From positions 1 to 64,000 of the forward strand of contig CAZSKP010000025.1 of assembly GCA_964607485.1 (NCBI GenBank): 64,000 bases of DNA, in the 5' to 3' direction. Numbering within the stretch: the first letter of the stretch is position 1; each line of letters starts with the position of its first letter. The position numbers and the translations under genes are program-made. The notes under the pieces were generated by a model. It did no database searches. It was not told the origin of the DNA and worked only from the letters and a program-made list of their open reading frames with translations. Positions 6,231 to 38,693 of the stretch are shown here, in pieces. Source of the stretch: an uncultured bacterium (GTDB lineage Bacteria > Abyssobacteria > SURF-5).

Positions 6231-6335
6231 TTCCGCTCCGATTCCGGGGATGTTTGAACCATGGTGTTCGCGGGAAAATGGTGGATTTTGGCACGTCATT
6301 CTATCACAATCTGAACCGGTCCCTCAAGAAGGAAC

Positions 6336-6930: not shown

Positions 6931-8460
6931 CTACCGCTGATGACATTGGTAGCAGAGCTCGCCGCCTGTGACGCCCACACGCAAAAGAAACACGATATCC
7001 GTGGCGTGTGGTGTGTGACAGGTGGTGCAGACGACCTCGTCATCGGGGCCGAAATTGAGCTTGTTGTCGGGTCGGATGTCGAGGTCGGCAGAGGGCTTGA
7101 CCCCTACCGGATGGGGGAAATCCTTATGCCGGCTGGGGTGACACAACGAGCAGAGCTGTTCGGTCTCCATCGTCAAATTGCCATTTCCCACACCTGAGTG
7201 GGGCATATGACACGTCGAGCAATTCCCCTCCTTGTACGGAAAATGAACGAAGCGATAAATTCGCTGGGGGCGTGAGTCGTGACAGCGGAAGCACAGGGCC
7301 TGGCCCTCGTCCTTCAAGAGCGCCGGCAGATTACCCATGTGCGGCTGGTGACAGGCGACGCATCCCTGTTCAACCGCCGTATGAGGATGTTGTTCCTGTA
7401 TCTGCTTCGCAATCTCGGAATGACATTTGAAACAGGTCTCTTTTTCGGGACCGGCCAGAATTCCCGGTACGTCCGAACCGTGCGGATTGTGACACTCCAC
7501 GCATTGTCCGTTCGAGAAAGGCTCGTGCAGCCGCGCACCCTCAGGGGGCACGAGTGCATCGGCGTGACAGCGGGAGCAGAGGCCCACGCCCGGCTCGATG
7601 AGCAATGAGCTGTTGGGCGTGGCATGAGGCCCGTGGCAGTTCAGACAATCTTCCTCAGCGGGAAGGTGCGGAAACTTGGATTTCAAGAGCTCCTCGATAT
7701 CCGAATGGCACACGGTGCAGAGTTGCGACCCGACGGCGACCAGCTTCACCTGCTTTTCGCCCTCGGAGATCACATGACAGCTATCGCACATCCCCTCGCT
7801 GAACGGGTAGTGCGCGTTCTCCAGAATCAGCGCTTTGTTCGATGAGAAGTGGCCCTTATGACAAGAGAGACAATCGGTGCCCTCCGAGAGCAGATTCAGG
7901 TGAGCCTTGTTGAAGGCTTCGTCGGTGACGTCGTGACAGCCGGTGCACAGGTCCCACGGCTTCTCAACCAGCAGGGCGCGATTGGGAGAAGTATGCGGAT
8001 TGTGACAGGTCGTACATTCGCCGTCCTCGAACGGCGGATGCACCGAGGCGGGCCTTTCCCCCGCCGGCATTCCCTCGTGGCACATAAGACACAGGTCGGG
8101 CAGCCGGTCAAGCAGGAGAGTGGGATATTCCGACGAATGCGGGCTGTGGCAGGTGGTGCACTCGTCCACGACCGGATGCACCGACTTCATCTCTTCTTCT
8201 TTGGCGTAATCCCTGTGGCAAACCGTGCATATCGCCGAACCCTGCTCGGTAAAGCCGAACGTTTCGGGGTCATGACAGGCGTCGCATTGCTTTGATTCGA
8301 AGGGATAGTGAAGATATTTCTTCTGCAGGGCTTCCTTCATGTCGGCGTGACAGTCGAGACACTCGGTCTTCGTCGGGTCGTGTTCGACGTTAAATCCGGA
8401 GAAAACAAAGAAAACACCCAGCAAGAAGAAGAACCCGCATACGTTTTTTGCCGTTATCAA
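6931..8460 (-). CDS. Multiheme cytochrome c, 20 CXXCH
   Basis: 20 CXXCH counted, arranged as paired H-P..CxxCHxPH..CxxCH repeats; N-terminal signal; TTG start after AGGAG. Confidence 0.92.
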   Translation of the reverse strand: MITAKNVCGFFFLLGVFFVFSGFNVEHDPTKTECLDCHADMKEALQKKYLHYPFESKQCDACHDPETFGFTEQGSAICTVCHRDYAKEEEMKSVHPVVDECTTCHSPHSSEYPTLLLDRLPDLCLMCHEGMPAGERPASVHPPFEDGECTTCHNPHTSPNRALLVEKPWDLCTGCHDVTDEAFNKAHLNLLSEGTDCLSCHKGHFSSNKALILENAHYPFSEGMCDSCHVISEGEKQVKLVAVGSQLCTVCHSDIEELLKSKFPHLPAEEDCLNCHGPHATPNSSLLIEPGVGLCSRCHADALVPPEGARLHEPFSNGQCVECHNPHGSDVPGILAGPEKETCFKCHSEIAKQIQEQHPHTAVEQGCVACHQPHMGNLPALLKDEGQALCFRCHDSRPQRIYRFVHFPYKEGNCSTCHMPHSGVGNGNLTMETEQLCSLCHPSRHKDFPHPVGVKPSADLDIRPDNKLNFGPDDEVVCTTCHTPHATDIVFLLRVGVTGGELCYQCHQR

Positions 8461-8502: not shown

Positions 8503-9288
8503 TCAGTGGGAGATGCCCTTGATGGTTTCCCACTCCTGCAACACGGCGCCGTGGGCCTTTTCCCTCTCGGCTTCGGTGGATTCTAACTCCTCCCTCGTGG
8601 GAGCAAGTGGAATGACCGGCTCCTCTATGGGCTTGGCCGGCACGAGCTCTTTCTTCACTTTCAGGGGGAGCCTCGCGACGTAGCCTTCTTTCCCTTCCGG
8701 ATACATCGCCGCCCCGAGCGCCTGCACCATGTCTTTCACCACGATTTCGGACAGAACTCCCAGCGAATTCACTCTCCCTATCCCAAAGACGATTTCCTTA
8801 TAGTCGCCCTGAAGCGAATGGGTCGCCGACCACACAATCTCACCACTGTTCGCGTCGACGAGCCTCAGGGTTATCGAGACTGCGGGCAACAAGCCCAGGT
8901 CGGTCGTGATGGTGGCGTATTCGTTCACGCTCCCAAAGATGATGCCGTCGGCGGTGAGCTCCCGCGAGGCTGCGCGTATGGTGTCGAGATCGAGCTGCGC
9001 CGCGACCCGAATCCGCGAACGGATTATGAACTGTTGAATCTCGCCCGGCTCGACCAGGTTCACAAGGTTCGAATTGTACAACTCCGAAACCAGAATACTC
9101 GTCACCCGGCTTCCGGCCTCGGGCGCACCGCTGAGGTTCTCCAGCGGAAACACCGCTATGCGGTTGAACCGTGTCACCTCGGGCGCGGGCCGCACGCTGA
9201 ACTGTGTGCGTCCGCAGGAGGCGAACACAAGAATGAGTCCAACAGCCACGAAACGCTCTAACGTGCTTTTCTTCGTCATCATTGTCAT
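8503..9288 (-). CDS. Lipoprotein, CsgG/DUF799 (GNA1162)-like
   Basis: Lipobox FASC, 'RIAVFPLENLS', 'ADGIIFGSVNEY', 'ITLRLVDANSGEIVWSA'; ATGA overlap with the upstream gene. Confidence 0.75.
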   Translation of the reverse strand: MTMMTKKSTLERFVAVGLILVFASCGRTQFSVRPAPEVTRFNRIAVFPLENLSGAPEAGSRVTSILVSELYNSNLVNLVEPGEIQQFIIRSRIRVAAQLDLDTIRAASRELTADGIIFGSVNEYATITTDLGLLPAVSITLRLVDANSGEIVWSATHSLQGDYKEIVFGIGRVNSLGVLSEIVVKDMVQALGAAMYPEGKEGYVARLPLKVKKELVPAKPIEEPVIPLAPTREELESTEAEREKAHGAVLQEWETIKGISH

Positions 9289-9860
9289 CTCACCATGTCT
9301 ATCAGTTTGCGACATACCCTTCGAGTGAGAACCGAAAAAAGCTGCTCCTCGCCCACGTCGACCACCGGCACCCTCGGGCTCCCCTCCTCCGACGCGGTAC
9401 CCATGAAGATGATGGTTCCCGTGTTCACGTCCACCCAGCGGACGTTGACCGCCACAACCGGATAGCTTTCGTTCCGAAACCGCTCCCTACCGTACTCCTG
9501 AACGCTGCCGAAGATGAGCGTGTCGGCCCGAAGCGCATTGCCGACCGATTTGATCTGGCTCTGGCTCAGCTTGCTTCCGACGATGCTGTTGTCTCTCAGA
9601 ACGCGCGCCACCTCTCCCGGCTCGACGACTTCGACGTCTATATCCATCAGGAGCTCTGAGATGTAGATCGTCGTCACCTTTTCACCCGCAAACTGGGTAA
9701 CGGTAAGGTTCTCAAACGGAATGACCGCCACGCGCGCGATTGCGCTCAAATCGGCCTCGGGATGCCTGAACGCCTGCACTCCCGTCGCGCATCCCGCAAA
9801 CAGCAACGCCGACACAAGCAGCCAGCTCAGAAAACGCACTCTAAGGATGTTAGATTTCAT
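9285..9860 (-). CDS. Lipoprotein, CsgG/DUF799-like (paralog of the downstream gene)
   Basis: Lipobox FAGC, 'RVAVIPFENLT', 'ADTLIFGSVQEY', 'VNVRWVDVNTGTIIF'; GGAGG RBS before 9860. Confidence 0.75.
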   Translation of the reverse strand: MKSNILRVRFLSWLLVSALLFAGCATGVQAFRHPEADLSAIARVAVIPFENLTVTQFAGEKVTTIYISELLMDIDVEVVEPGEVARVLRDNSIVGSKLSQSQIKSVGNALRADTLIFGSVQEYGRERFRNESYPVVAVNVRWVDVNTGTIIFMGTASEEGSPRVPVVDVGEEQLFSVLTRRVCRKLIDMVR

Positions 9861-9981
9861 CCCCGCCTCCCGGGATCTGTCCCTGTCGCCACGCTCCAAT
9901 TGGTTCACAGCCATCTTCGTCACTCTCCATCTTCAAGCCAAAGTTTCACAGCACAATAAAGAAACGTTCATGGTGCTGCTC

Positions 9982-12486
9982 TCAGAAAATCTTCGTCAGC
10001 TCGACGAACAGGAAATTGCTGTCGGACTGTTGCCCTTCCTCGATCTCCCAATTGATCGACATTCTGGTGTCCCAAAAGAAAGGAAACTTCGCCTGAGTCC
10101 TGAAGCTGAATACTTTCTCCTCATCGGAGCCGCCCCGGTATCCGACGAAGAAAGTCAGTTTGTCGTTCATCTTCCAGACGAGGTTCGATAAATAGCTCAG
10201 CCTATCCGTGGTCATGCCGTCGGACTTGCTCTCTACGTAATCCATATCCAGAAATAAGTCGAGCCGACGGCTGATGGCCCACGCGAGATCCATGCTCCCG
10301 AAGATCGTCTCCGAGCTCACATCGTCCAGCCCGGCGAACTTGCTGTCGCTCTTATTATATTCGGCAGTCGTGTTCAATGTCATGTTGGGCCTCGGCACAA
10401 GCCTCAGCCGACCCCGAACTCGTTGGCTGTCCACCGTGCCGTCGGCCTCGAAATCCTTGGACTGGCTGCTCGAAAGCTGCACATTGAGGTCGACGCCCCG
10501 ATATATTTTCATGTCGGTCGTGGCCGAGAACGTGTCCGTTTCCAGCACCTTCTCGTTTTCCTGCTCATTCTGCTGGTTCGAGTAGCTGAGGTCCACTCTG
10601 ACCCTGTCGGTGGGGAGCAGGTTCAGGCTCAGGTTTGTAAACGTGCTGTCCTCGTCGGGGCCGATATTGGTGTTCAGGTTGGCCAGCTGGTACGTCGCCG
10701 ACATGTTTACCCGAGGTATCGGCTGGAGAGAAAGCGTGTGGGTCTGGATGAATTCGTCACGCTTCGACTTCACATCTCCCGCCTCGGTTTCGAAAAGCTC
10801 AAGGTCGAACAGCGATGTAAACGATACCCAGCGATAGGGCTGGAGTCTGACCTGGGTGGTCAATTCGTGGGTAAGAGACGAGACCAGCTCCTCTCCCGTG
10901 TCCTTGTCCTCCTCCTTCGATTTGAAAAACTCGTAGTCCACAGAGGCATAGACTCCCTGAACCAGCTCGCGGGAATAGATGATGTTGAACGAATCCGACA
11001 TCAGATGCGTGCTCCGGCCCCGCTCCTCGCCGCTTATGGAGCCGACCTGGAAGATGAACATGCCGGCGCTCGTGAGCACCTGAAACCTGTCGTTTCCCGT
11101 GTCGGCAACAACGACGTCGTCGGCCGGCGTCAGGGCTATTCCACTGGGGGCATTGAACTCGCCGGGGCCGGTTCCCGAGGCGCCAAATTCATTCAGGAAC
11201 GCCCCCGCCGTGGTGAACACCTGTACCCTGTTGTTTCCCGTATCCGTCACGTACACCCGATTGACGGAATCGAGCGCGACATCCGTGGGAGATTGAAACT
11301 GGCCGGGGCTGGAGCCGAACGAGCCCCACTGAGTCACGAATGCGCCAGCCGTCGTGAACACCTGCACGCGGTGGTTCTGGGTGTCGGCCACGAACACGAG
11401 GCTGCCGTTCGACGCGATTCCCGACGGCGCGGAGAAGTTGCCCGGACCGGAACCGGTGGTGCCGAACGAAAACAAGAAGGCTCCGGCGTCGGTGAACTTC
11501 TGCACGCGGTCGTTCCCCTGGTCTGTCACGTACACGCCCGTGCCGTCAACCGCGACGCCATAGGGAGCGTCGAATTCACCCGCGCCGAGGCCGAACGTGC
11601 CCCATTCGGAGACGAACGTGCCCGTCTGGTCGAACCTCTGCACGCGGTCGTTGTCCGAATCGACCACGTACACAAAACTCGGAGTCACGTCTATCCCCAA
11701 CGGATTCCTGAACTGGCCCTCGCCGCTTCCGAAGCTGCCGAATTCTCCCAGAAACGCTCCCGAAGAGCTGAACCTGAAGACACGGTTCGCCGTTGAATCC
11801 GTCGCGTAAATGACCCCCGCGGAATCCACGGCGACGCCCCTGACATTCTGCAGGGTCGTGGTGGTGAGCGTGGAGAGGTTGTTATCGAATTCCGTTTCCC
11901 GATGCGAATACCTTACGGACAGCGGCCCATTATCGTACGTCGAGCGTATTCCCCAGTTGGTCTCGACGAAATCGGTCTGCGGCTCCTCCGCATCGTCTTC
12001 GGTTGAGATCCTTGAGAAATCCACCGTAAGGTCGGGATAGTCAGGGTCGGGCTCATAGTAGAAATTCGAGAAGAGAGTGTTGGACGTCAGGGTAAGGCCG
12101 CCTTCCTCGAGGTCTTTCTGTTTGAACTCTCGATATTCCACCAGCCATCGGTATTCCGGCCCCCTCAGGTTGAATCCGGCCAGCGGCCTGAGTTCCTCGG
12201 AGTCGGGGTTGTTTTGCTCCTCTCGGGAGAACTGAAAATAGAGGTCCAACAAATCCACGTTGCTCAGGGCCGTGCTCCAATTCAGGCGAAACCTCTGTTC
12301 AAAAGAGGAGAAGACCTCGCCGTCTTCTTCCTGTCTAAGGTAGTTCACGGTCGCCGATCCGCTCATTTCGCCGGCCCGCACGCTCACCGACCACAACAAC
12401 AATGCGCCGGTTACGAGCAAGAGCCGGCCTGCTCCTATGCATGAGGAAGACAGTTTACGCGGTTGCACATTCGATTTCTGGTTCAC
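9982..12486 (-). CDS. Outer-membrane beta-barrel with an inserted six-bladed NHL propeller
   Basis: Signal peptide, alternating amphipathic beta strands on both sides of six NHL repeats, C-terminal Phe ('FVELTKIF'). Confidence 0.8.
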   Translation of the reverse strand: MNQKSNVQPRKLSSSCIGAGRLLLVTGALLLWSVSVRAGEMSGSATVNYLRQEEDGEVFSSFEQRFRLNWSTALSNVDLLDLYFQFSREEQNNPDSEELRPLAGFNLRGPEYRWLVEYREFKQKDLEEGGLTLTSNTLFSNFYYEPDPDYPDLTVDFSRISTEDDAEEPQTDFVETNWGIRSTYDNGPLSVRYSHRETEFDNNLSTLTTTTLQNVRGVAVDSAGVIYATDSTANRVFRFSSSGAFLGEFGSFGSGEGQFRNPLGIDVTPSFVYVVDSDNDRVQRFDQTGTFVSEWGTFGLGAGEFDAPYGVAVDGTGVYVTDQGNDRVQKFTDAGAFLFSFGTTGSGPGNFSAPSGIASNGSLVFVADTQNHRVQVFTTAGAFVTQWGSFGSSPGQFQSPTDVALDSVNRVYVTDTGNNRVQVFTTAGAFLNEFGASGTGPGEFNAPSGIALTPADDVVVADTGNDRFQVLTSAGMFIFQVGSISGEERGRSTHLMSDSFNIIYSRELVQGVYASVDYEFFKSKEEDKDTGEELVSSLTHELTTQVRLQPYRWVSFTSLFDLELFETEAGDVKSKRDEFIQTHTLSLQPIPRVNMSATYQLANLNTNIGPDEDSTFTNLSLNLLPTDRVRVDLSYSNQQNEQENEKVLETDTFSATTDMKIYRGVDLNVQLSSSQSKDFEADGTVDSQRVRGRLRLVPRPNMTLNTTAEYNKSDSKFAGLDDVSSETIFGSMDLAWAISRRLDLFLDMDYVESKSDGMTTDRLSYLSNLVWKMNDKLTFFVGYRGGSDEEKVFSFRTQAKFPFFWDTRMSINWEIEEGQQSDSNFLFVELTKIF

Positions 12487-12527: not shown

Positions 12528-14012
12528 CTAATTATGACAAGCCACGTTGCAGTCGCCTTCATCCCAATCTCCGCTCGGCCCCCAGTTCGGGATATCGCTC
12601 TCCAACAACAATACCGTGCCGCCCCGGAGCCTGGCCGGGTCGCTCGTGGTCACGAGCAACGCCCGCCGGTTGATTCCATGCGGAATCTTGTCATGGCAGT
12701 CCATACACCCGATTGGCCGGTTCGCGACGACATTGTCCTGCTGAGAGTGAAATCCATGCAGGTTTCTAGTCCCGCCGTCCGAGGAAAAACCCGTGTTGCG
12801 ATTATCGTTTGCCTGCGCGTAGGTCGAAAAATCGTGGCACAGGAAGCAGAGGTGTCCGCTCGTGTCCTGCGTGGGCTGACCGGTTGTCACATCCCACGTA
12901 GCCTTCAACAGAAACTGAAGTTGGGAACCGTGGGGGCCTTCGGGGTCGCGCTCGACGTCGCTGCCGTGACAGTCGGAGCAGTACATCTGAGAGTCCCATC
13001 TCCAGCCGTTCACGAATTCGCCCCGGCCGTCGAGGTTGGGCGTCTGGATGACGTTGTGCGAACTCTCGTTGTTGGGGTTGAACTCGATCGACTGGTCCGT
13101 CTCCTGGCCTCCTCCCAGAGGCAACAGAGGCGGAAACGATCCATAGGCCCAGTATGAATGACACTTGAAACAAAGCTGATATTCGAATTGAATGTCGAAG
13201 GTCTGGTCCTTCGGCTCAAACGTCGGGAACGTGTCGGGCATGCCTCCATAGTTGGCCACGACGAAACTCGAGCCCATAAGCACGCCCGATGCCTGGTTTG
13301 TGCCCTGAACGTGAAGGTCCCCGGTGTGTACGTGCACGTTGTGGCAATCGACGCACTCGACATGTCGGCCCTGACCGGAAAAATTCGAGGAAATCATCTC
13401 TTCTCCCGCCCTGTGACGCCCGGCCATCTGGCGGTTGTCTATCTGGTGGGTAAATTGGTAAGTCAACTGCGTCTGGATGTCCTTCTGAGCGGGACCGGCC
13501 ACCCTGTGGCATCCCAGACACAAGTCTTCCTCCCGCCTGAACAAAAGCGAAGGCATCAGCCCCTCCGCGTCGCCCCAGCCGTGCGGCGTGTGACAGTTGA
13601 CGCACTTCCCCTTGGCTTCCGGCTCCATCCGGGCCGGAGGCTCCGGGCCAGGCCATCGCACCAGAAAGTCATTCTTGTGAATGGAGCGCTCGTACACGGA
13701 CGAGTCGCGATATGTCTCCTTCGGGCTTTCACCCGAGTGGCAGGTGAAGCACAACTGGTTGGTATCCTCCATCCAGAGCGCAAAATCGGTGGCGGCGCCG
13801 GGCGTTCCGTGCATCGAATGGCAATGCTCGCAGTCGCCCGGCGGAAGCGACGGGTCGCGCTTCACCCCTGTCGTCGGGTCTCCATGCAGCGTAGATGTGT
13901 ACAGTCCACCGCGCGCCCATCCGACGGATGCAACGCGCAAGGTAAGAATCGAGAGCGCGGCCAGCGCTGCGGCGACCATTACGATTTTCTTGACTGTCTG
14001 TCTCTTAGTCAT
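12528..14012 (-). CDS. Multiheme cytochrome c (9 CXXCH plus terminal CX3CH)
   Basis: CEHCH, CFTCH, CVNCH, CLGCH, CVDCH, CFKCH, CSDCH, CFLCH, CMDCH, CNVACH; signal peptide. Confidence 0.9.
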   Translation of the reverse strand: MTKRQTVKKIVMVAAALAALSILTLRVASVGWARGGLYTSTLHGDPTTGVKRDPSLPPGDCEHCHSMHGTPGAATDFALWMEDTNQLCFTCHSGESPKETYRDSSVYERSIHKNDFLVRWPGPEPPARMEPEAKGKCVNCHTPHGWGDAEGLMPSLLFRREEDLCLGCHRVAGPAQKDIQTQLTYQFTHQIDNRQMAGRHRAGEEMISSNFSGQGRHVECVDCHNVHVHTGDLHVQGTNQASGVLMGSSFVVANYGGMPDTFPTFEPKDQTFDIQFEYQLCFKCHSYWAYGSFPPLLPLGGGQETDQSIEFNPNNESSHNVIQTPNLDGRGEFVNGWRWDSQMYCSDCHGSDVERDPEGPHGSQLQFLLKATWDVTTGQPTQDTSGHLCFLCHDFSTYAQANDNRNTGFSSDGGTRNLHGFHSQQDNVVANRPIGCMDCHDKIPHGINRRALLVTTSDPARLRGGTVLLLESDIPNWGPSGDWDEGDCNVACHN

Positions 14013-14021: not shown

Positions 14022-15107
14022 TCACTCGTTGTGACACTGTTGACAGGGCGCATACGCGTCGGCGACGTTTCCGGGTGTTTTGAAAGGCCACGTCGCGCCG
14101 GCGCCATAGGGACCTCCGTGGGCGAAATGGCAGCTTTCGCAGAAGACCTCATTGCTTGCGGAAACCGCCCTGGCGGTCTCGAGGCTCGTCGCCGAAGGGT
14201 TCTGAAAGCGAACCCTCGGCATACCCGGCGTCGCGTCGCCCGTCGCCAGCCCAAAGCCGGCCCCCTCGCCGCCCAGCCAGTGCTGGAGGTCGACATGCGA
14301 GCCGCCGATTCCCATGCTGACATCCGCCGGATGCGCCTGGAAATGAGCGGGAAGCGTTCCCGCCTGCGTGGGGAGCAGCCCGTCGTGACATTCGGCGCAC
14401 CACTCTGACATCCTCGAACGATAGGCCACGTTGGAAATCCTGTATGCCTCCGCCGGATTGGTCCCGTCGGGATGGACCTCCTCGAACACGTCGTCGGTCG
14501 GAAGCTCCGGGTCGTGGTGGGCCAAGGGCGTGCCCGCTCCGGCGCCCGGACGGCTCTTGAGGTTCCTGTAGTACTGATTTCCGTGAGGGTCGTGGCAGCT
14601 CGTGCACTTGAGCACCGCAGGCGCCATTTCGCTGAAGGGAACCTCTGCGGGGAACACTCCGAGGTCGTGGCCCTTTTCGCTCTCGCTGCCTCCACTGTAC
14701 TCGAAGTATCCACCGGCGGAGAATTCGTCGGGCCCATAGGGTGTCGAAACAGGCGCCAACACGTCGGCCGCATCGACATCGGAGCCGTCGTGACAACTCA
14801 GGCACAGCTTGGTCGGAGACGAGAAGAGGAGAAGCTTCTCGAACGGGCCCCCCGGCTCCGCCCCGACGGGAGGCCTGCCATGCTGGCTGAAGTGGGCCGT
14901 GTGGCACTTCGAGCACACCTGTCCCTCGATGTGAAACTCGCCTGCAAGGGTCGTGCCCGCGGAGGCCGAGAACAGAAGCGCGAACAGCAGCGCCAGCTTC
15001 CCGAACCTTCCGAGAAGGCGATTACCTCTGCAACATCTTGAAGGCCTGAAGCCTCGAGGCCCCTTTTTCGAGAACATAGAGAGTCCTCTCGCCGAAGGCA
15101 ATATCAA
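14022..15107 (-). CDS. OmcS/OmcT-like hexaheme cytochrome c (second copy)
   Basis: Mature start 'FHIEGQVCSKCHTAH', six CXXCH, 'CTSCHDPHGNQYYRNL', 'MSEWCAECH'. True start uncertain because the ORF overlaps the upstream NHL gene. Confidence 0.8.
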   Translation of the reverse strand: MILPSARGLSMFSKKGPRGFRPSRCCRGNRLLGRFGKLALLFALLFSASAGTTLAGEFHIEGQVCSKCHTAHFSQHGRPPVGAEPGGPFEKLLLFSSPTKLCLSCHDGSDVDAADVLAPVSTPYGPDEFSAGGYFEYSGGSESEKGHDLGVFPAEVPFSEMAPAVLKCTSCHDPHGNQYYRNLKSRPGAGAGTPLAHHDPELPTDDVFEEVHPDGTNPAEAYRISNVAYRSRMSEWCAECHDGLLPTQAGTLPAHFQAHPADVSMGIGGSHVDLQHWLGGEGAGFGLATGDATPGMPRVRFQNPSATSLETARAVSASNEVFCESCHFAHGGPYGAGATWPFKTPGNVADAYAPCQQCHNE

Positions 15108-15945
15108 TCGGGTAGAAAAGCTCGCCGTCGCCCATTCCCGTCCTGCCCCATCGAAAAAGAAAGTTTCCGTCGAGGCTGAAGACTTTCAGGTCCTGCTTGA
15201 AGCTATCGACTATCCAAAGGTTCCCGTCGGGCCCAATCGCCGCCCCGGTGGGAAAAGAAAACTCCGAATCCTTTGGGCCGTGCCTTCCAAAACTTCTCAG
15301 ATGAGAACCGTCGCGGTCGAATACATTGACGGCCAGCCCCTCGGAGCTCAGGATGTACACGTTTCCCTCTGCATCCACCGTCACGTCCTGAACCTTCCAT
15401 TTCGGCGTCCCGTCAGCGGGCGTCTGTGCTATTCGCCGCACTGCATTGTCCGGCCTGGAAACGATGAAGACCGTGGGAGTCGCTCTGTCCGCGACGTATA
15501 TCTGGCCGGCGGGCCCGGAGCAGATTCGCCCCGGCGACGGAGGCGTGTCGCCCAAGGGCTCAAGCAGTATCGGTGGAAAGCGATTCCCAAGAATATCCAG
15601 CCGCATGACCTGCGGCCTGTCCATTTCCGTGAAGTATATTTCCTCATCCTCGCCGGCGGCGACGCCGACCGGGCTTCGGATACCGGCGAGCCGGCCGATA
15701 CTCTTTATGAGCACGCCATCCCTGTTGAAGACACGAATCTGATGATTGCCCGTGTCTGCGACCAGAATGTCTCCCGACGACTTGGAGATATCCAGCCCGA
15801 GCGGGTCGCGCAGGCTGGTTCCGTCGGCCAGACGGGAGACCGAGAAAACAAACCTGAGATTTCCATCGAGAGAATAGGAAGGAGAGTTGTAGAACAACAA
15901 CAGAGAGGTTATGAGCAGGCCGCCTATTTGAACGCGTTTGTTCAT
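15022..15945 (-). CDS. Exported NHL-repeat beta-propeller protein
   Basis: Signal peptide; repeats 'DPLGLDI..DILVADTGNHQIRVF', 'FSFPTGAAI', 'LFYPIDIA'; GAGG RBS. Confidence 0.88.
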   Translation of the reverse strand: MNKRVQIGGLLITSLLLFYNSPSYSLDGNLRFVFSVSRLADGTSLRDPLGLDISKSSGDILVADTGNHQIRVFNRDGVLIKSIGRLAGIRSPVGVAAGEDEEIYFTEMDRPQVMRLDILGNRFPPILLEPLGDTPPSPGRICSGPAGQIYVADRATPTVFIVSRPDNAVRRIAQTPADGTPKWKVQDVTVDAEGNVYILSSEGLAVNVFDRDGSHLRSFGRHGPKDSEFSFPTGAAIGPDGNLWIVDSFKQDLKVFSLDGNFLFRWGRTGMGDGELFYPIDIAFGERTLYVLEKGASRLQAFKMLQR

Positions 15946-16253: not shown

Positions 16254-17351
16254 TTACGGCACGACCGGCGCTGCTACCACGATCTCGTCGCCGGCGTCCT
16301 GTGCGTGACACTTGTTGCACAGACTCCTCTGGTTCAACATATCCAGCGGAGCGCCGTCATAAGTGCTGATGTACGGCTCCGTTGCAGGATCCGGATGACC
16401 CTCTTCGAGCAATGTCGCTGCGAAATCCCAACGGCCCGCGTCCGGATAAGGAGACGCATGGGCACGGTGACAGGTCAGGCACATGACTTTGCTGGCCGCC
16501 GTCGGACCTGTCGTGCTGGTGGTCGTGTTCGCAGCATCCTCGAACGGAACGAGCGGCAGGTAGGCCGTTCCCTGAGAACCGCCGGTCATATCGCTTGTGG
16601 TCACATACGCGTTGTAGTTACCCGCGAGCGTGGAACCGAGGCTCTCATCCGTCGGGTGCACGAGGTTGGCACTCATGCCGGAATGCATATCCGTGTGGCA
16701 GTTCGCGCACCAGTCGCTCATGCCACTGATGTAAGCGGTGTGGTTACCGATATACTCCTCGCCGGAATCTCCCGGGTTGGTTTTCCGCGAATTCCCTATG
16801 GCTATCGGCGCAGCCTCGGTGAAGCTGTAGCCGGCGGCCGGATAGTTCGCGGCCGTCTCACCTGCACCGTACAGCATCCGGAAATTCGTGTTGCCGTGCG
16901 GGTCATGGCACGAGTTACAGCCCAGGTACGTGGAATCGTACGTTCCGCCCGGCGCTTCGGTGAGCACGTCGTCCTCGACCAAGCCATGGCCGGGAGCATC
17001 AAGGTTGTGGCCGTGTTCACGACCCTGAACGGTAACGTCGCCGTGATGCCCTGCCCACGTGATGTCCTGAGTCAGCCAGTAGAAGTCGCCGCCGGGACCG
17101 CGTCCCAGGCCGGTGGCGAGCTGGCCGTAATCAGCGTGACAGCTCAGGCAGGTGTCGCTGGGTGTTGCGTCGACCAGCAGGTAAGCGTTGCCGGTCGGCG
17201 AGTCTGCGTCTACCGGCGCGCCGTCCTGGCTGTTGTGCATGGTATGGCATCCGCTGCAGCGAGCCACACCAGCATCGTGGAACGCCATGGCCGCCGTGGA
17301 GTAACCCGCCACAAACAGAAGGGCTACTACTAGTACAATCGCCTTTTTCAT
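16254..17351 (-). CDS. omcS: OmcS-like hexaheme cytochrome c (candidate nanowire subunit)
   Basis: Signal MKKAIV..AAMA, then 'FHDAGVARCSGCHTMHNS'; 'PGGDFYWL', 'GHNL', 'CNSCHDPHG', 'MSDWCANCH', 'VMCLTCHRAHAS', 'QRSLCNKCHAQD'; six CXXCH; GGAGG RBS. Symbol is by family resemblance, orthology not tested. Confidence 0.85.
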   Translation of the reverse strand: MKKAIVLVVALLFVAGYSTAAMAFHDAGVARCSGCHTMHNSQDGAPVDADSPTGNAYLLVDATPSDTCLSCHADYGQLATGLGRGPGGDFYWLTQDITWAGHHGDVTVQGREHGHNLDAPGHGLVEDDVLTEAPGGTYDSTYLGCNSCHDPHGNTNFRMLYGAGETAANYPAAGYSFTEAAPIAIGNSRKTNPGDSGEEYIGNHTAYISGMSDWCANCHTDMHSGMSANLVHPTDESLGSTLAGNYNAYVTTSDMTGGSQGTAYLPLVPFEDAANTTTSTTGPTAASKVMCLTCHRAHASPYPDAGRWDFAATLLEEGHPDPATEPYISTYDGAPLDMLNQRSLCNKCHAQDAGDEIVVAAPVVP

Positions 17352-17410
17352 CAGTTCACCTCCTTCCATTTTCGAATGTTTCAGGTTTCCTCTTTGTGCC
17401 CCAGAAGCTC

Positions 17411-18478
17411 TCATTCAAATTCCTCCTTTACCTTGAGAACCTGTACCTTGTTTCCGAATCGTTGTGAAACATAAATCCTTCCGTACCTGTCAATCTCTAG
17501 ACTGCTCGGGTAGAAAAACCAGCCGGGGCGTGAGCCCATACCGCCGAATTCGGTCAGGTAGCGGCCTTCCCCGTCATAGACCGATATGCAATGCCTCAGC
17601 TTATCGAGCACGAAAAGGTGGCCGTGTCTGTCGATGGCGACATCCACCGGAAACGCCAGCTTGCCCGGCCCACCGCCCTGGATGCCGAAGCCCATGACCT
17701 GCTCCCCCTCGGTGTTGAACACGTAAACTCTCCCGAGGGTGCTGACGGGCAGGTACAGCCTGTCTTCCTTATCCACGGTCAAGTTGCCGAATACGACTTC
17801 TTTCCGATCTTTCTCGTCCATCTCGGGCATGATTTTGAAACGAAACTGCCCCTCGCTGTCGAAGACGAGGATGCAGCCGGTTGTCGGATTGGACAGGTAG
17901 ATGTTGTCCTGGGAATCCATAGCCATTCCCACCGGGGCGCAAGTCTCGCCGTCGGGCAAACCCTTCAGCTCCAGCTGTGACAACCCTTTCCCCCGATAAT
18001 CGAAGATGTCTATCTGTCTGCCCCCAAAATTGTTTTCGAGCACGTATATGTCGCCCCGGCTGTTCACCACAACGTCGAGCGGATTTCTCAGGATGCCGTT
18101 GTGGCCGAACTGGAATATCTGCATTCCCTCTTTGCCAAAGATGCGAACGCAGCGGTTTCCCGTGTCCGCAATGTAGACCTCATTATTCCCGTTGTCGCAA
18201 AACACGCCGTTCTGCCGTTGAAAATGCGAATCCTTCGTCGTGCCCTGCAGGTCATAAAGATACGTAGCCTGGATGTTCAGCCCTGCATATGCAGGTATGG
18301 CTATCAGTGAAAAGATGAGAAAACCGAGGGCTGATGCAACGACGGGTGTTTTCACGAAACGGGGGCAGTACGCCTCCTCTTGGGCTGCCGAATCAGGGGC
18401 AACATCTTGAGTAGCAGTCTTTCTCAAGTGCGATATCATGTTTCTGACTGAAATCTTCACGGTCAACATTTCCTTCAC
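17411..18478 (-). CDS. Exported NHL-repeat beta-propeller protein
   Basis: Hydrophobic signal ending 'PAYA'; NHL repeats 'EVYIADTGNRCVRIF', 'LAFPVDVAID', 'FFYPSSLEID'. Start uncertain. Confidence 0.88.
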   Translation of the reverse strand: MKEMLTVKISVRNMISHLRKTATQDVAPDSAAQEEAYCPRFVKTPVVASALGFLIFSLIAIPAYAGLNIQATYLYDLQGTTKDSHFQRQNGVFCDNGNNEVYIADTGNRCVRIFGKEGMQIFQFGHNGILRNPLDVVVNSRGDIYVLENNFGGRQIDIFDYRGKGLSQLELKGLPDGETCAPVGMAMDSQDNIYLSNPTTGCILVFDSEGQFRFKIMPEMDEKDRKEVVFGNLTVDKEDRLYLPVSTLGRVYVFNTEGEQVMGFGIQGGGPGKLAFPVDVAIDRHGHLFVLDKLRHCISVYDGEGRYLTEFGGMGSRPGWFFYPSSLEIDRYGRIYVSQRFGNKVQVLKVKEEFE

Positions 18479-18868: not shown

Positions 18869-20125
18869 TCAGGTCGACTTGTGACACTGGATGCATAGTT
18901 CGCGGTCACGGGGATAGTAGGTCAGATAGTCCTCATTCGAGGAGTGCGGGTCGTGGCAGCTCACGCAGTCGAGCCTCGAGCCGTCGCGCGGGTCGATGAC
19001 CCCCTCGCCGAAGGGATGGCTGATGGTATGCTGCCCGGCATGGCACCGCTTGCAGAGCTCCATGACATCGGCCTTCAAGAGGGAGGCCATGTTTGAACCA
19101 TGAGGCTCGTGACAGAGTTCGCACTGCCCCTTCAAGACCGGTTCGTGCACGACCTTGAGCTCGAGCTTCTGCGTGAAATCCGAGTGGCACTCCGCACAGA
19201 GCAGGCGTTTGTTTTCCTTCATCAGGAACCGCTCGTCGGAGGCATGCGGGGAGTGGCAGGCGGTACAATTGCCCTCGATGACGGGCGGGTGTGTGACCGG
19301 CCTTGCGAATTCCTTCCACGTGTCGGCATGGCAGGAACGACACAGGCTTTCTTCGGCCTTGACCAGCTTGAACGGATTCGAGCTGTCAGCCGGCAGGTGA
19401 CAGAACGAACAGAGCTTCTTCGTCATGGGCACGTGCGCGACCTTCCTGGTGAGTCCTTGCTGAGAAGAGGCGTGCGGGTCGTGGCAGTCCGCACAACCGA
19501 CGTTCTGCACGGGATAGTTGGCGTGCGCTTTTCTGAAGGCCAGCTTGGAGCTGTCGTGGCACTGGGTGCATAGCTCAAAGGGCTGCTTCTTCAACAGGTT
19601 CTCCTGGGACGAGGTGTGCGGTGAATGACATCTCAAGCACTCGGCCCGTTCGACGGGAGGATGCACATACTGCTTGGCGAACTGCTCTTTTTCCTCCTGA
19701 TGGCAAACATAGCAGAGCTCCTTCTGAGGCGAATTGAGCAATCGCGCTTGTGTCGAGGCGTGAGGCTGATGGCAGCTCAGGCACTGGCCCTCTTCCACCG
19801 GTTTGTGCGCGTACTCAGAACCGAATTCGGGCGAGCTCTTATCGTGGCAATCGTAGCAGTATCTGCTCTTCGAGCTACGGACAAGGTTCGGGTGATTCGA
19901 GGCATGCGGGTTGTGGCACCCCACGCAGTTGCCCAGTTCCACGGGGGCGTGAACGTGCTTCCCCTGCCACGACTGCTTGAGCTCTTTGTGGCAGGTGTAG
20001 CAGAGCTTCTCGTAGCTCTTCTCGCGCACGATTTCCTTTCCCGCCCCGAAGACGTGCGTGTTCGCGCCGAACATCCCTACAAGGGCAAGCGCGAGAAGGA
20101 TGATGACTGTTCTTCCGCTCCTCAT
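18869..20125 (-). CDS. Multiheme cytochrome c, 16 CXXCH
   Basis: 16 CXXCH counted; signal peptide. Confidence 0.92.
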   Translation of the reverse strand: MRSGRTVIILLALALVGMFGANTHVFGAGKEIVREKSYEKLCYTCHKELKQSWQGKHVHAPVELGNCVGCHNPHASNHPNLVRSSKSRYCYDCHDKSSPEFGSEYAHKPVEEGQCLSCHQPHASTQARLLNSPQKELCYVCHQEEKEQFAKQYVHPPVERAECLRCHSPHTSSQENLLKKQPFELCTQCHDSSKLAFRKAHANYPVQNVGCADCHDPHASSQQGLTRKVAHVPMTKKLCSFCHLPADSSNPFKLVKAEESLCRSCHADTWKEFARPVTHPPVIEGNCTACHSPHASDERFLMKENKRLLCAECHSDFTQKLELKVVHEPVLKGQCELCHEPHGSNMASLLKADVMELCKRCHAGQHTISHPFGEGVIDPRDGSRLDCVSCHDPHSSNEDYLTYYPRDRELCIQCHKST

Positions 20126-20195
20126 AGATTATCCGATCTCAATTCCCCTGTCCCGGCGGCCATGCAAAGGCCCGCGCCTTCAGGGGGCTGAATCG

Positions 20196-22169
20196 TCAAT
20201 GACAAAGTTCGCAGCGAAATTCTCCGTACGGTTCGTGGACAATGGCCGGCTCCAGCCCCTTTTGCTGGGACGCATGCGGGTCGTGGCATCCGGCGCAGTT
20301 CGCCTTGGTGACGTCGTAGCCTTTGTGCGCAGTAAGAAATTCTGGGGCCCCGGTATCGTGGCACGTCGCGCAGAGCTCGCTGGGTTTTTCGGGCAGCAAC
20401 GCGCTGAACTTGCTCAGGTGCGGCTCATGACACACCAGGCAATCGCCGTCGCCGACAGGCCCATGAACCACGGCCTTGCTGAACGCCTGTTTCTGAGTCG
20501 TATGGCAGTCGTAACAAAGCGGGGAGCCCGATTTCTTGAGAATCGGCGCCTGGGATGAAGCATGCGCCTCGTGGCATCCGAGGCAGTTTCTCTCTTTCAC
20601 GGGCTCGTGCACGTAACCGCCCGCGGCTTCCTCGGCATAATCGGCGTGGCAGTCGTAGCAAAGCTCGGTCAACGTAGTTTCAAGTAGTCCTTCGTTGGGG
20701 CTCGCATGCGACGGATGACAGGAAGAACACACGCCCTCGGCGACCGGCTCATGCACGCTGCTTACCTTCAGCGACTTTTCGAATTGCTCGTGACAGGTGA
20801 AGCAGAGCTTCGGCTCGACGGCCGTCAGGTAATTGGCATTGTCGCTGGAATGCGGGTCGTGGCATTGGACACACTGCCCCGCGACGAAGGGATCGTGTCC
20901 GCTCTTGCTCCGTTGCTGCTCTTTGATATCCGTATGACATTCGGAGCAGAGTGCGAACGGTTTGTCCCTCAATAGGGAGGCGAGCTGCGAGGTGTGCGGG
21001 ACGTGACAATTCAGGCAGTCCCCTTCCTTAAACGGAGCGTGAAGCTTCGCCCGCTTGAATTTGGGTTCGTCCCTGTGACAGTCGAGACACAGCTTCTCGC
21101 GCGGCTCATGCGTCAGGTACGGATAATCGCTGGCGTGCGAGTCGTGACAGGCCGAGCAGTTTCCTTCCACGAAGGGCTGGTGAGCCGCGGGCGGCTTCTT
21201 CGTCGGGAAAAGCGCCTCGTTTTCATGACATTGCCGACAAACCGCCTCCTGCCGGTCATTCAGGAGAGCGGCATATCGCGAGGCGTGAGGCTGATGGCAG
21301 CTTTCACACGTTTTGTCAGCGAACGGCGGATGCACGTCTTGAAGCCCGAGCTTCTGCTCCTGGTCGGTGTGGCAGGTGAGGCAGAGGTCGCCCTCGGCCT
21401 GCGCAAGGCCGGGCTTCTCGCCTGGCGCCGGCGGAGTGTGGCAGGTCTGACAATCGGCCTCCGTCAACGGCGGATGAAGCGCGGTTTGAAACAGTCCTTT
21501 CGTCTCGGATGAATGCGGATTATGGCACGAGTCGCAGGCTCCCTGCGTGACATCGTAGTTCTGATGCTTCCGAACGAACGACGCATCGTTAAAATTGTGG
21601 CAGTCGGAACAGACGCTCGCCTCGGACTTTTTGAGCAGTGAAGCGTTGGGGCCGGCGTGCGGCACGTGGCATGTGAGGCACTCCCCCTCTTTCACTGGCG
21701 CGTGAACGACGGGCCTGGTGAATTCCTGCTTTTGGTTCTCGTGGCAAATGTAGCAGAGGTTGACTCCCTCCTGCCTCAGCAATCCCTTGTTTGGGCTGGA
21801 ATGCGGGTCGTGGCACTTCCAGCAAACCCCCTGCTCGTCTTTGAAATGAAGGACCGGCTGCTCGAACATATCTTTCTGGTCTTCGTGACACTGAAAACAG
21901 AGCGACGCGTCCTCCTGCTTCAGCAGCAGCACCTTCATCAGCCCGTGCCGTTTGTGACACTTCTCGCAGTCTTCGCTCTTGAACGGCGCGTGGACCACCC
22001 TGTCGGAGAGTCGCGGGCGCATGTCCTCGTGACATTCGAGACACGACCGGCCCATCCGCCTGCGGGCGGGCCGAGGGCCGGCGCAATACAGCACCGACAG
22101 CGCTAGCACACCAAGAAATGACAGGTAGACGATGCGGCGTAATTGTGAGGCTGATGCGGGTTTTGCCAA
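20196..22169 (-). CDS. Multiheme cytochrome c, 26 CXXCH (possible lipoprotein)
   Basis: 26 CXXCH counted; hydrophobic N-terminus ending 'VLYC'; TTG start. Confidence 0.92.
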   Translation of the reverse strand: MAKPASASQLRRIVYLSFLGVLALSVLYCAGPRPARRRMGRSCLECHEDMRPRLSDRVVHAPFKSEDCEKCHKRHGLMKVLLLKQEDASLCFQCHEDQKDMFEQPVLHFKDEQGVCWKCHDPHSSPNKGLLRQEGVNLCYICHENQKQEFTRPVVHAPVKEGECLTCHVPHAGPNASLLKKSEASVCSDCHNFNDASFVRKHQNYDVTQGACDSCHNPHSSETKGLFQTALHPPLTEADCQTCHTPPAPGEKPGLAQAEGDLCLTCHTDQEQKLGLQDVHPPFADKTCESCHQPHASRYAALLNDRQEAVCRQCHENEALFPTKKPPAAHQPFVEGNCSACHDSHASDYPYLTHEPREKLCLDCHRDEPKFKRAKLHAPFKEGDCLNCHVPHTSQLASLLRDKPFALCSECHTDIKEQQRSKSGHDPFVAGQCVQCHDPHSSDNANYLTAVEPKLCFTCHEQFEKSLKVSSVHEPVAEGVCSSCHPSHASPNEGLLETTLTELCYDCHADYAEEAAGGYVHEPVKERNCLGCHEAHASSQAPILKKSGSPLCYDCHTTQKQAFSKAVVHGPVGDGDCLVCHEPHLSKFSALLPEKPSELCATCHDTGAPEFLTAHKGYDVTKANCAGCHDPHASQQKGLEPAIVHEPYGEFRCELCH

Positions 22170-23706: not shown

Positions 23707-25065
23707 TCACTCCCCTATCGCTTTGCGCAGTTGCGCGAGCAGTCCGTTCCACTCATACACAAAGTCGGGTCTATTCTTCACGCTGTAACTCAAAACTCTT
23801 ATGCGCCCGCTTTCGCCCGACTCTCCGCCGTCGAACTCAACCCGGACGAACCGCCGGAACATGTAGCAAGAAACGAGCGCGCCGCCCACGAGGAGCACAA
23901 ACCCGAAATAAGCGAACGCGGCGCCGGGGTCTTTCACTATCTTGATGCCGGAATAATATTTCAGACTCACTCGCTCGATAGCGAGCGTGAGCGGGCCGGA
24001 CGAGGAGTCGTGCCGCGGCACAATTCCCTTGAAGGCCCATCCGGTCCACACAGGCTGCTCGCTCCGGGCCGGAGAATACACGGACACCTTCGCTGCCGGG
24101 TTCAGGAAGAACCGGCTGCGCGAAAACACATTGTTCTTCGAGTCGATGGCGAAATCGGGAACGATCTCTTTCAGCTCGACCGCCATGTCCCGGCCGGCTA
24201 TGTCGGCGCGTTTGCCGGGCACAAGCCTTATGCTTGCGACAGGCGAGCGGGTTGCCGGTTTAAACGCGACGAGGCTCACATAGCGGACGTCGGGGCGATA
24301 ACGCATTTGATAAAGAGTCGCCCCTCCGACGGAGAGCGGCTGATTCACGCGCAGCATGTGCCAGCTTGGGGCGCCGTCGTTGCCTGTGACCATCAGGGTG
24401 CTGACATATTCCTCGGGCTCTCTCGTGCCCGGATGATGAACGATGGAGAATTTCTCGAGCCTGAGTTTCGTCTGAGTATCGGGAATCGTGTACGTCTCTC
24501 CCTCGCCCAGCATGATTTCGCGGACGGTTCCGAAATTGTGGGTGACGAGCCCGCCGACAAATGCGACGACCAGCCCGAGATGCACAACCAGCGGCCCCAG
24601 CACTCCGGCGCGTCCCTTGTCGAACAGGACGGCCTCGTCGGCCGGTTCGGCAGAGGCTGCGCGCGCGTGGTATCCCCTGTCGCGCAGAATTCGCGTTACT
24701 TTCTTGCGGACCGTTTCTCTTGAAGCCTCGGAAATAGGAATGGAGTGCGTCGCCACTCCGTCCTCGCGGGACCACGCCGCTTTGTCGGGGATGAAAGCGA
24801 AGGCCCTGATTACCGAGGGCAGCCTCCTGAGCGAGCAGTAGATCATCAACGAAGCGAGGAAGACGAGAAGCGATGTGTACCACCACGTGTGATAGAGGTT
24901 CTCCGCGCCGATAGCCCGGAGCAGCCCGGATAAAACTCTCCCGACGGTTCCGGTCTCAAGAAGCTTGACCGGAATCGTGCCGAGAACGGAAGCGAGCCCA
25001 ACGGCGCAAATGAGGGCGATGGTCAGCGCCGGCGAGCGCAGTTTCTGGTCGATCGTCCGCCACAC
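23707..25065 (-). CDS. resB: Cytochrome c biogenesis system II protein (ResB/CcsB)
   Basis: 'SVLGT', 'YHTWWY', 'CSLRR', 'VHLG', 'VNQPL..G..LYQ', 'KDPG'; adjacent to ccsA. Confidence 0.9.
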   Translation of the reverse strand: MWRTIDQKLRSPALTIALICAVGLASVLGTIPVKLLETGTVGRVLSGLLRAIGAENLYHTWWYTSLLVFLASLMIYCSLRRLPSVIRAFAFIPDKAAWSREDGVATHSIPISEASRETVRKKVTRILRDRGYHARAASAEPADEAVLFDKGRAGVLGPLVVHLGLVVAFVGGLVTHNFGTVREIMLGEGETYTIPDTQTKLRLEKFSIVHHPGTREPEEYVSTLMVTGNDGAPSWHMLRVNQPLSVGGATLYQMRYRPDVRYVSLVAFKPATRSPVASIRLVPGKRADIAGRDMAVELKEIVPDFAIDSKNNVFSRSRFFLNPAAKVSVYSPARSEQPVWTGWAFKGIVPRHDSSSGPLTLAIERVSLKYYSGIKIVKDPGAAFAYFGFVLLVGGALVSCYMFRRFVRVEFDGGESGESGRIRVLSYSVKNRPDFVYEWNGLLAQLRKAIGE

Positions 25066-27181: not shown

Positions 27182-27248
27182 ATTCAAAACCCCCTGATTG
27201 TGCGCTGTGACCATTGTTTGTTGGCAACCTTCGGATTCGTTCCGCCGT

Positions 27249-38588: not shown

Positions 38589-38603
38589 ATATTGTCCTTC
38601 ACT

Positions 38604-38677
38604 TTCTACCCTTGCGCTGACCGAGCGAGGGTTGATCGCCAGCGAAACAACAGTCAGCGTCCAGCAAATTGTTTGAC
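38604..38677 (-). mobile_element. Degenerate integron attC-like site
   Basis: GTCAAAC-AATTT-GCTGGACG...GGTCAGC-GCAAG-GGTAGAA between two co-oriented low-GC ORFs. Confidence 0.5.
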
Positions 38678-38693
38678 GTGCGCTTTCCAATGC

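Follow-up and report, generated by a model that had tools for sequence, protein, structure and literature searches.

How cytochrome nanowires cross the outer membrane, and how they then stay attached to it, is treated as unanswered in the accessible text of PMC13712944, which says of the secretion route that it 'remains unanswered'. A gene on a contig from an uncultured bacterium of the GTDB lineage Abyssobacteria, SURF-5, bears on this question. The contig is CAZSKP010000025.1 of GenBank assembly GCA_964607485.1, and positions 1 to 64,000 of its forward strand, 64,000 nucleotides (nt) in length, make up the window, the whole stretch of DNA that was analysed. The gene (9982..12486, minus strand) lies among multihaem cytochrome genes and encodes a protein of 834 amino acids (aa), designated P0001 in the protein set P0001-P0018, in which a six-bladed NHL beta-propeller is inserted between two parts of a predicted outer-membrane beta-barrel. 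This architecture had been noted from the letters of the sequence alone, and the analysis confirms that it is real. What, then, might a barrel with a built-in propeller be doing in such a cluster?

An NHL propeller inside a barrel protein

The open reading frame (ORF) begins with GTG, has a ribosome-binding site of the AAGGG type 4-9 nt 5′ of this codon and ends with a stop codon at 9982-9984. It is separated by a gap of 41 nt from the stop codon of the upstream gene, and its extent is supported by the ORF list, the translation and 16 full-length relatives. Residues 1-38 (12373..12486) constitute a putative signal peptide, as judged by eye, with a charged n-region, the core LLLVTGALLLWSVSV and a cleavage site between VRA and GE; in the AlphaFold2 (AF2) model of the protein a helix is placed within this segment, at aa 15-32, with a low predicted local distance difference test score (pLDDT). 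The N-terminal barrel flank, aa 39-203 (11878..12372), has nine beta-strands (beta1-beta9), assigned by DSSP on the AF2 model with block pLDDT values of 65-90 and by the seam contacts described below. It is followed by the entry linker LSTLTTTTL, aa 204-212 (11851..11877), by the propeller, aa 213-484 (11035..11850), with 24 strands, and by the C-terminal barrel flank, aa 490-834 (9985..11019), with strands beta10-beta28, of which 15 are modelled and four are deduced. All of these features are encoded on the minus strand. The protein ends with VELTKIF, which resembles a beta-signal, and the terminal Phe is present in 17 of the 18 proteins P0001-P0018 and in most of the distant relatives. By these sequence features, an N-terminal signal-like segment and a C-terminal aromatic beta-signal, P0001 would belong to the general class of outer-membrane beta-barrels that depend on the barrel assembly machinery (BAM), with flanks for which Pfam and NCBIfam scans gave no family match. 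The sequence-only reading had placed about 200 aa of strand pattern before the repeats, the repeats themselves at about 11010-11880 and about 340 aa of strands after them, figures that hold to within a few residues.

Long ORFs are also present antisense to the barrel gene, for example at 10423-11796 on the plus strand (457 aa). Their translations are rich in Arg, Gly and Val, and by sequence they look like by-products of the high G+C content, not genes.

The identity of the insert is readily apparent. The NHL propeller class is represented in Pfam by PF01436 and PF17170, and the Pfam NHL profile matches P0001 with E 1.6e-30 and 104 bits against a cut-off of 20, far beyond chance, while DUF5128, a six-bladed propeller, matches with E 1e-23 and 84.5 bits against a cut-off of 22.9. 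Both matches are confined to the middle third of the protein. The six blades are at aa 213-249, 250-296, 297-342, 343-388, 389-435 and 436-482 (nt 11041-11850) and, in the AF2 model, this region has 24 short strands (aa 215-481) with block pLDDT values of 79-95. When compared by Foldseek, the modelled propeller superimposes on 6d69 with a target template-modelling score (TM-score) of 0.87 and a root-mean-square deviation (rmsd) of 1.1 Å over 263 columns, and on the TRIM71 NHL domain with TM-scores of 0.90-0.91, the rmsd values to the Thin and TRIM71 NHL domains being 1.0-1.7 Å. The model is, in these respects, that of a closed six-blade NHL fold. The linker that leads into it is Thr-rich in P0001, as had been remarked from the sequence, but this richness is peculiar to P0001. 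The family keeps the spacing L-T-x-L-x-x-I-x-L, within the consensus N-N-L-T-x-L-x-x-I-x-L-Q, and the linkers of relatives read, for example, QLTTLTTTDLQ, NLTFLSPIELD and HLTFLTATNLQ.

The flanks are predicted to form one barrel. The AF2 model of the whole protein, built on a 17-row family alignment (A1), has a mean pLDDT of 74.3 and a predicted TM-score (pTM) of 0.55, with values below 50 at aa 582-681; there are nine long strands in aa 41-202, five in aa 493-587 and ten in aa 665-833. Closure was evaluated by co-folding aa 40-205 and aa 490-834 as two separate chains, with the propeller left out. The two chains associated with an ipSAE interface score of 0.62, the best control giving 0.25, and by a rough calibration 116 of 157 solved complexes attain the mark so reached, as do 2 of 215 mismatched pairs. 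Three runs shared at least 98% of their contacts, with partner pLDDT values of at least 85. The confident contacts in the co-fold make up precisely the two seams that closure into one barrel calls for. At the first, the strand at aa 188-202 lies antiparallel to that at aa 490-506 (contacts 501-192, 498-195 and 495-198) and, at the second, the strand at aa 42-56 pairs with aa 821-834, the first strand of the barrel with the last. The AF2 strand pattern agrees with both seams, and the models thus favour what had been proposed from the sequence, namely antiparallel strands closing into a single barrel with the propeller in a hairpin loop.

The number of strands was derived from a comparison with P0127, a distant relative without the propeller, which was modelled at pLDDT 86.6 with 11 strands, an all-beta module of ~160 residues (aa 243-405) and then 17 more strands, 28 in total. 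When the two subfamilies are aligned by hhalign (probability 99.7%, E 2.5e-26), N-flank falls on N-flank and C-flank on C-flank. The reciprocal comparison, a hidden Markov model (HMM) of the distant subfamily against the window protein, gave E 2e-40 overall, in two pieces of 1.9e-15 and 2.6e-24. In this register strand 13 of P0001 aligns with strand 13 of P0127, and the poorly modelled aa 588-664 therefore presumably contribute four strands, making P0001 a barrel of 9 + 19 = 28. In the AF2 models of both P0001 and P0127, the loops other than the insert are only 2-7 residues long on both faces. By the standard barrel-radius formula, we estimate that the lumen of a 28-strand barrel would be ~55 Å across C-alpha atoms. 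Fold searches with the whole P0001 model returned NHL propellers only, the barrel being swamped, and the P0127 model retrieved only generic large barrels, with TM-scores of no more than 0.42.

Relatives of the barrel and their inserts

A word-index search with the full-length protein gave 17 full-length matches, which are the window's own protein, with a later start call, and the 16 relatives. These are 787-835 aa long, 52-71% identical to P0001 and of several origins, with Candidatus Abyssubacteria or Abyssobacteria in some of the titles. The remaining matches listed are limited to the propeller, which is about 30% of the query. In the family alignment F200 and N202, before the insert, and R489 and S492, after it, are invariant. 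A second word-index search, with aa 495-834 and over lengths of 458-1460 aa, returned 16 matches, the window's own protein and 15 of the relatives, all with NHL domains. When a C-flank profile was run exhaustively with HMMER against 1.84 billion representatives (E <= 1e-3), 23 matches were obtained: one representative and three fragments of the same clade, two distant NHL barrels, 11 full-length proteins and five fragments of a subfamily with another module, and one spurious repeat protein. Five matches, 271-459 aa long, have the look of gene fragments, and three of these start within the middle module. The two distant NHL barrels, P0125 and P0128, are 29-32% identical to P0001 and collinear with it over 730-830 positions, across both junctions, and their propeller follows the N-flank at the corresponding point.

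The NHL layout is therefore present in 18 relatives, and neither the word-index search over 458-1460 aa nor the HMMER C-flank search revealed a full-length homologue free of an insert. A comparison of homologues with and without the insert had been suggested when the architecture was first noted, and its outcome is that the insert is not a one-off fusion; it is the rule among all detectable homologues, and hence a family trait. The barrel-NHL family is small, uncultured and undescribed.

The other subfamily is represented by 11 full-length proteins of 688-722 aa (P0126, P0127, P0129-P0131, P0134-P0137, P0140 and P0143) in which an all-beta module is located after strand 11. According to the Atlas, most are from Thermodesulfobacteriota, and those members that are named are annotated as hypothetical proteins, from uncultured Thermodesulfobacteriota and Deltaproteobacteria. 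The module in P0140 matches the F5/8-type-C (discoidin) profile with E 1.7e-5 and 25.4 bits, below the cut-off of 28.2, and among the 18 distant relatives three match one discoidin profile and two match the other, all below threshold; by sequence, we tentatively describe the module as discoidin-like. As judged by strand counts and by the hhalign and HMM register, the insert follows strand 9 in the NHL branch and strand 11 in the other. Whether a single insertion loop is shared was also considered, and the fragment-level HMM matches that bear on this are weak, at 1-3 bits. An insert is the norm in the family, with different modules in neighbouring loops on one face in the models. The exchange of the insert for another all-beta module in distant relatives is as expected for an exposed functional module.

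To look for such barrels near NHL genes, HMMs for both flanks and for the distant subfamily were run against every ORF of 100 aa or more from the window and from 79 loci chosen by their NHL motifs. They match only in the window and in three of the loci, L001-L003, the other 76 of the 79 being irrelevant NHL proteins. One of the 79, L035 (Geobacteraceae), has a Big_5-fn3-NHL protein in a housekeeping context.

The window contains three ORFs with NHL repeats, including the barrel gene. The insert is 27.5% identical to the stand-alone NHL protein encoded at 17411-18478, about 27% identical to that at 15022-15945, and 40-52% identical to NHL domains of unrelated multidomain proteins in other phyla. 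It is nearer to the domains of these unrelated proteins than to its neighbours, which makes the fusion an old one and not a recent fusion of a neighbour. The suggestion that P0001 fuses two components that are separate elsewhere in the locus is thus right in that stand-alone NHL genes exist, but the insert is no recent copy of either, and the barrel has no stand-alone counterpart in the window, where the sole other barrel is an unrelated MtrB/PioB-like porin (25169-27214). Within the literature searched, no barrel with an internal NHL propeller is described, and only separate-gene cases were found. In the accessible parts of the sources, NHL proteins are encoded as separate genes beside cytochromes in D. 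ferrophilus (PMC5815863) and in Tenderiales (bioRxiv 10.1101/2022.05.06.490989).

A conserved block of cytochrome, propeller and lipoprotein genes

All genes from 22169 to 6931 are on the minus strand and form a block of 11, in the order 26-haem cytochrome, 16-haem cytochrome, NHL protein (355 aa), OmcS homologue, NHL protein (307 aa), six-haem cytochrome (361 aa), cytochrome of 494 aa, barrel, lipoproteins of 212 and 270 aa, and 20-haem cytochrome. The same 11 genes are present in the same order in L001-L003, at 57-77% identity.

The two large multihaem cytochromes that head the block (18869..22169) have 657 aa with 26 haems and 418 aa with 16 haems, as established by Pfam scan and motif count. 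Downstream are the first stand-alone NHL propeller protein (17411..18478, 355 aa; Pfam NHL, E 1.1e-15), the OmcS homologue (16254..17414, 386 aa), which has six CXXCH motifs and matches OmcS in PDB entry 6ef8 with E 1.6e-48, the second NHL protein (15022..15945, 307 aa; Pfam NHL, E 1.7e-22) and an OmcS-like cytochrome (14022..15107, 361 aa), also with six CXXCH motifs, that matches 6ef8 with E 6e-7. Both stand-alone NHL proteins have signal peptides and no obvious lipobox, as judged by eye. Directly upstream of the barrel gene is a cytochrome of 494 aa (12528..14012) with nine CXXCH motifs and a C-terminal CX3CH (CNVACH), by motif count. Its haem density is low, it has no solved relative at E <= 1 and it is 71-77% identical to its counterparts in L001-L003; it may represent a new type of cytochrome that associates with the barrel or forms filaments. 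The block is closed by the 20-haem cytochrome (6931..8460, 509 aa; Pfam scan and motif count).

Two lipoprotein genes immediately follow the barrel gene. The product of the first (9285..9923, 212 aa) has the lipobox LFAGC and matches part of the Pfam CsgG profile with 27.0 bits against a cut-off of 20.8. The second (8503..9315, 270 aa), with the lipobox VFASC, likewise matches part of this profile (27.3 bits) and is PelC-like: it matches the PelC chain 9h80_C with E 3.8e-8, query residues 24-179 aligning with residues 8-157, nearly the whole length of the chain, and its profile matches 5t11 (E 1.4e-8) and 5t10 (E 2.1e-8). When aligned by hhalign, the two lipoproteins are 32% identical (probability 99.6%, E 6e-25), identifying the 212-aa protein as a paralogue of the PelC-like one. 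As listed, the two genes overlap by 31 nt (9285-9315); relatives are called with starts that give 262-309 aa, and the true start of the 270-aa lipoprotein gene may be further downstream.

The osc (omcS-companion) cluster of Geobacter sulfurreducens, GSU2501 and GSU2500-GSU2493, was reportedly described by Shen and colleagues in Cell Chem Biol in 2025. In the accessible text of bioRxiv 10.1101/2025.11.06.686851, an eight-gene block, GSU2500-GSU2493, follows the OmcS-like GSU2501, and GSU2495 is cited as a 26-haem protein; GSU2497 is called a lipoprotein and GSU2499 a hypothetical protein in what could be seen of the citing papers. For G. sulfurreducens it has been proposed, in the available part of PMC13194489, that OscH folds, OscE/F/G secrete and OscD shapes the OmcS nanowires. 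An account of the folds of OscE, OscF or OscG was not found within the literature searched. Set beside osc by gene content and description, the block in the window also has OmcS-family six-haem cytochromes (the 386-aa and 361-aa proteins), a 26-haem cytochrome with two NHL genes, lipoproteins and a putative outer-membrane channel. The resemblance extends beyond the block. In L001 (16498-21665), L002 (15850-21935) and L003 (16211-21545) the genes that come after it encode a fused periplasmic-binding protein, a HAMP histidine kinase and a sigma-54 response regulator, and a sigma-54 regulator and a kinase (GSU2506 and GSU2507) are also found beside omcS in G. sulfurreducens, in the descriptions available. 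The differences are that here the propeller is built into the barrel and the host is an Abyssubacteria-like lineage, whereas osc belongs to Desulfuromonadia, and that an OscH-type peptidyl-prolyl isomerase was not found among the ORFs scanned. According to the accessible text of PMC13712944, OmcE and OmcS regions typically contain large beta-barrels and beta-propeller lipoproteins. In the OmcE-type clusters of Desulfuromonadia that this text describes, propeller and barrel are separate genes, whereas here one propeller is internal to the barrel and the stand-alone NHL proteins are without an obvious lipobox.

The PelBC system provides the second comparison. As described in the part of PMC12141448 that was available, twelve copies of the lipoprotein PelC are arranged as a ring on the periplasmic side of the PelB barrel, and P0001 would similarly be partnered with one or more PelC-like outer-membrane lipoproteins. 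There are, however, two paralogous lipoproteins here instead of one, and the barrel has 28 predicted strands, a propeller and no detectable PelB similarity, with neither a tetratricopeptide repeat nor another barrel family found by Pfam and NCBIfam. Unlike PelBC, the cargo is likely to be a protein rather than a polysaccharide.

In the window the block is followed by genes for a 902-aa protein (3591-6299, minus strand), in which a sulfatase domain occupies only aa 346-745 and the N-terminal ~340 residues have no family match, a ferredoxin-like protein and a molybdopterin oxidoreductase. On the other side of the block is the MtrB/PioB-like porin (25169..27214, minus strand, 681 aa; PF11854, E 1.8e-7, 30.6 bits against a cut-off of 23). 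It is adjoined by a gene for a 259-aa cytochrome with seven CXXCH motifs, the pair spanning 25169-28028 on the minus strand, and by sequence this pair resembles a porin-cytochrome conduit. Beside them, at 23707-25065 on the minus strand, is a ResB-like gene of cytochrome c biogenesis. The flanks covered for L001-L003 contain no match to the porin or to the ResB-like gene, and there the seven-haem cytochrome matches only other multihaem genes. Elsewhere in the window, positions 38001-40000 have a G+C content of 0.454, compared with 0.52-0.61 outside this interval, and no Pfam family matches the 271-aa ORF at 37875-38690. Scans for Rfam families and for tRNA genes gave no match anywhere in the window.

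Proposed orientation and cargo of the pore, and other possible roles

The chances seem to us evenly balanced that the barrel is the outer-membrane export or anchoring pore of an osc-like filament system of the OmcS type, functioning as follows. The insert comes after an odd number of strands, nine, and the first strand pairs with the last, which therefore puts the insert on the face opposite both termini in the models. The number is also odd in the other subfamily (9 in P0001, 11 in P0127). In outer-membrane barrels the termini and the C-terminal beta-signal are periplasmic. If this usual topology holds, the propeller would probably face the cell surface. On the periplasmic side, a ring made up of the PelC-like lipoprotein and its paralogue would underlie the barrel, as the PelC ring underlies PelB, and OmcS-like subunits or a cytochrome stalk could pass through, or be held in, the wide lumen. 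There are no long loops on the barrel, and it is therefore left to the insert or to a partner protein to seal the lumen. The propeller might then be the lid of an otherwise loop-less pore and also a docking platform that holds the base of the filament or a terminal cytochrome. The sequence-only reading had suggested a pore and scaffold for filament export or anchoring. The locus context is as this would have it, with an OmcS homologue, a PelC-like lipoprotein and a paralogue of the latter in a conserved block; the function itself we infer.

Several points weigh against such a role. It draws on prediction and context for a family known from sequences alone. The placement of the propeller relative to the barrel is not fixed by the model (pTM 0.55, pLDDT 74.3), and the orientation combines a strand count with a general topology rule, the loop lengths showing no asymmetry. 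The co-fold was run on our own alignment, which makes the calibration counts only rough, two halves of one chain readily pass a test of this kind, and the score expresses the confidence of a model and is no measurement. By itself the 212-aa lipoprotein matches PelC weakly (E 0.011 for the direct PDB match) and its profile not at all. The ORFs scanned in the window and downstream in L001-L003 include no peptidyl-prolyl isomerase or rotamase equivalent to OscH. The top structural match of the barrel scaffold, moreover, is MtrB, the sheath of a porin-cytochrome conduit.

This last match leads to a different role, which we consider unlikely, in which the barrel sheathes a multihaem cytochrome, either the 494-aa protein encoded upstream or the 20-haem protein encoded downstream, as in MtrB and PioB, and conducts electrons instead of passing a filament, with the propeller clamping an outer cytochrome. 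Cytochrome genes are present on both sides of the barrel gene and, in the accessible text of PMC5815863, NHL proteins are proposed to stabilise outer-membrane cytochrome complexes in D. ferrophilus. Like MtrB and PioB, P0001 is, by model, a large and loop-poor barrel encoded among multihaem cytochromes; its 28 strands put it in the same size class as MtrB, and the MtrB chain 6r2q_B gave the top TM-score in the search with the P0127 scaffold (0.39 as TMq and 0.42 as TMt). These TM-scores are, however, low, and TonB-dependent receptors score similarly by E-value. P0001 has no match to MtrB_PioB (PF11854) at E <= 0.01, and only one of the 18 distant relatives has one, at E 0.0063 and below the cut-off. 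A separate MtrB/PioB-like porin, together with its adjoining seven-haem cytochrome, is already encoded in the window, and PelC, which the lipoprotein resembles, partners an export barrel. To our knowledge, PelC-like lipoproteins are not part of known porin-cytochrome complexes, and we know of no inserted domain in MtrB.

An inward-facing propeller is a further alternative, and in our judgement a distinctly unlikely one. The pore would be the same, but the propeller would be a periplasmic or lumenal plug, comparable to the plug of an usher or to LptE in LptD, and would act as an inner-side gate or a chaperone platform. The strand count argues otherwise, as an odd number before the insert, 9 here and 11 in P0127, puts both inserts opposite the termini, and the periplasmic rim is expected to be occupied by the ring of PelC-like lipoproteins. 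The plug is nevertheless consistent with the uncertain domain placement indicated by the pTM, and with the estimated ~55 Å C-alpha diameter, which is roughly the width of a six-bladed propeller; with no long loops to seal the barrel, something must do so. There is also a precedent in PapC, in which a plug domain blocks the barrel and is moved aside during translocation, as documented in the available part of PMC4356140. A lumenal cap that enters from outside would be compatible with the export or anchoring pore as well.

That the barrel and the lipoprotein pair export some non-cytochrome polymer, for example a polysaccharide as PelBC does, and are merely co-located with cytochromes, the propeller binding the polymer or the surface, seems very improbable. 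The 11-gene block holds only cytochromes, NHL proteins, the barrel and lipoproteins, with no glycosyltransferase or polymerase within it, and the PMT_2 genes of the window are more than 30 kb away. On the other hand, the lipoproteins match PelC, one Atlas cluster of the distant relatives is auto-named after a PEP-CTERM-associated outer-membrane protein, and the module of these relatives has the sub-threshold F5/8-type-C matches noted above, discoidin being a domain class that is often sugar-binding. An assembly chimera or mis-joined gene, also raised when the architecture was first noted, has a negligible probability given the same collinear layout in 16 relatives, in three syntenic loci and in P0125 and P0128 at ~30% identity, with invariant residues at the junctions.

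A folded domain spliced between barrel strands is not in itself new. In the ushers PapC and FimD such a domain gates a fibre-assembly pore, and the Hop-family 'interrupted beta-barrel' adhesins also have a folded domain between strands of an outer-membrane barrel. The likeness goes no further than the principle: P0001 is unrelated to them by sequence or family and has no Usher match in Pfam, its barrel is larger, and what is inserted is a propeller of 270 aa that is predicted to lie on the outer face. The ingredients are thus already known, both the barrels, propeller proteins and lipoproteins of cytochrome-filament clusters and the insertion of domains into barrels, as in ushers and Hop adhesins.

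A bolder interpretation, which on balance we doubt, is that P0001 is a 'Rosetta-stone' fusion. The NHL propellers of extracellular-electron-transfer clusters across phyla would then dock on the outer rim of a filament export barrel, and P0001 would exemplify a new class of loop-less pores with 28 strands, in which a 'cassette loop' has acquired different modules on independent occasions, NHL after strand 9 and discoidin-like after strand 11. Each module would be lid and anchor for a surface polymer. Here this would be a conductive filament of the OmcS type, and the host would belong to a candidate phylum of the deep subsurface that is not known to make nanowires.

The finding extends OmcS-type machinery to an Abyssubacteria-like lineage. 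In the accessible text of PMC13712944, large barrels and beta-propellers recur in OmcS and OmcE clusters as separate genes; here they are covalently joined, which provides a concrete and testable geometry. The barrel-propeller protein is a compact target for structure determination, and a periplasmic PelC-like ring is nominated as a further component. Should the orientation or the cargo prove to differ from those proposed, the family would still be a new and conserved case of domain insertion into a very large outer-membrane barrel. A pore with a built-in propeller in an OmcS-type cluster suggests, as a hint, how the pore and propeller parts of such systems fit together.

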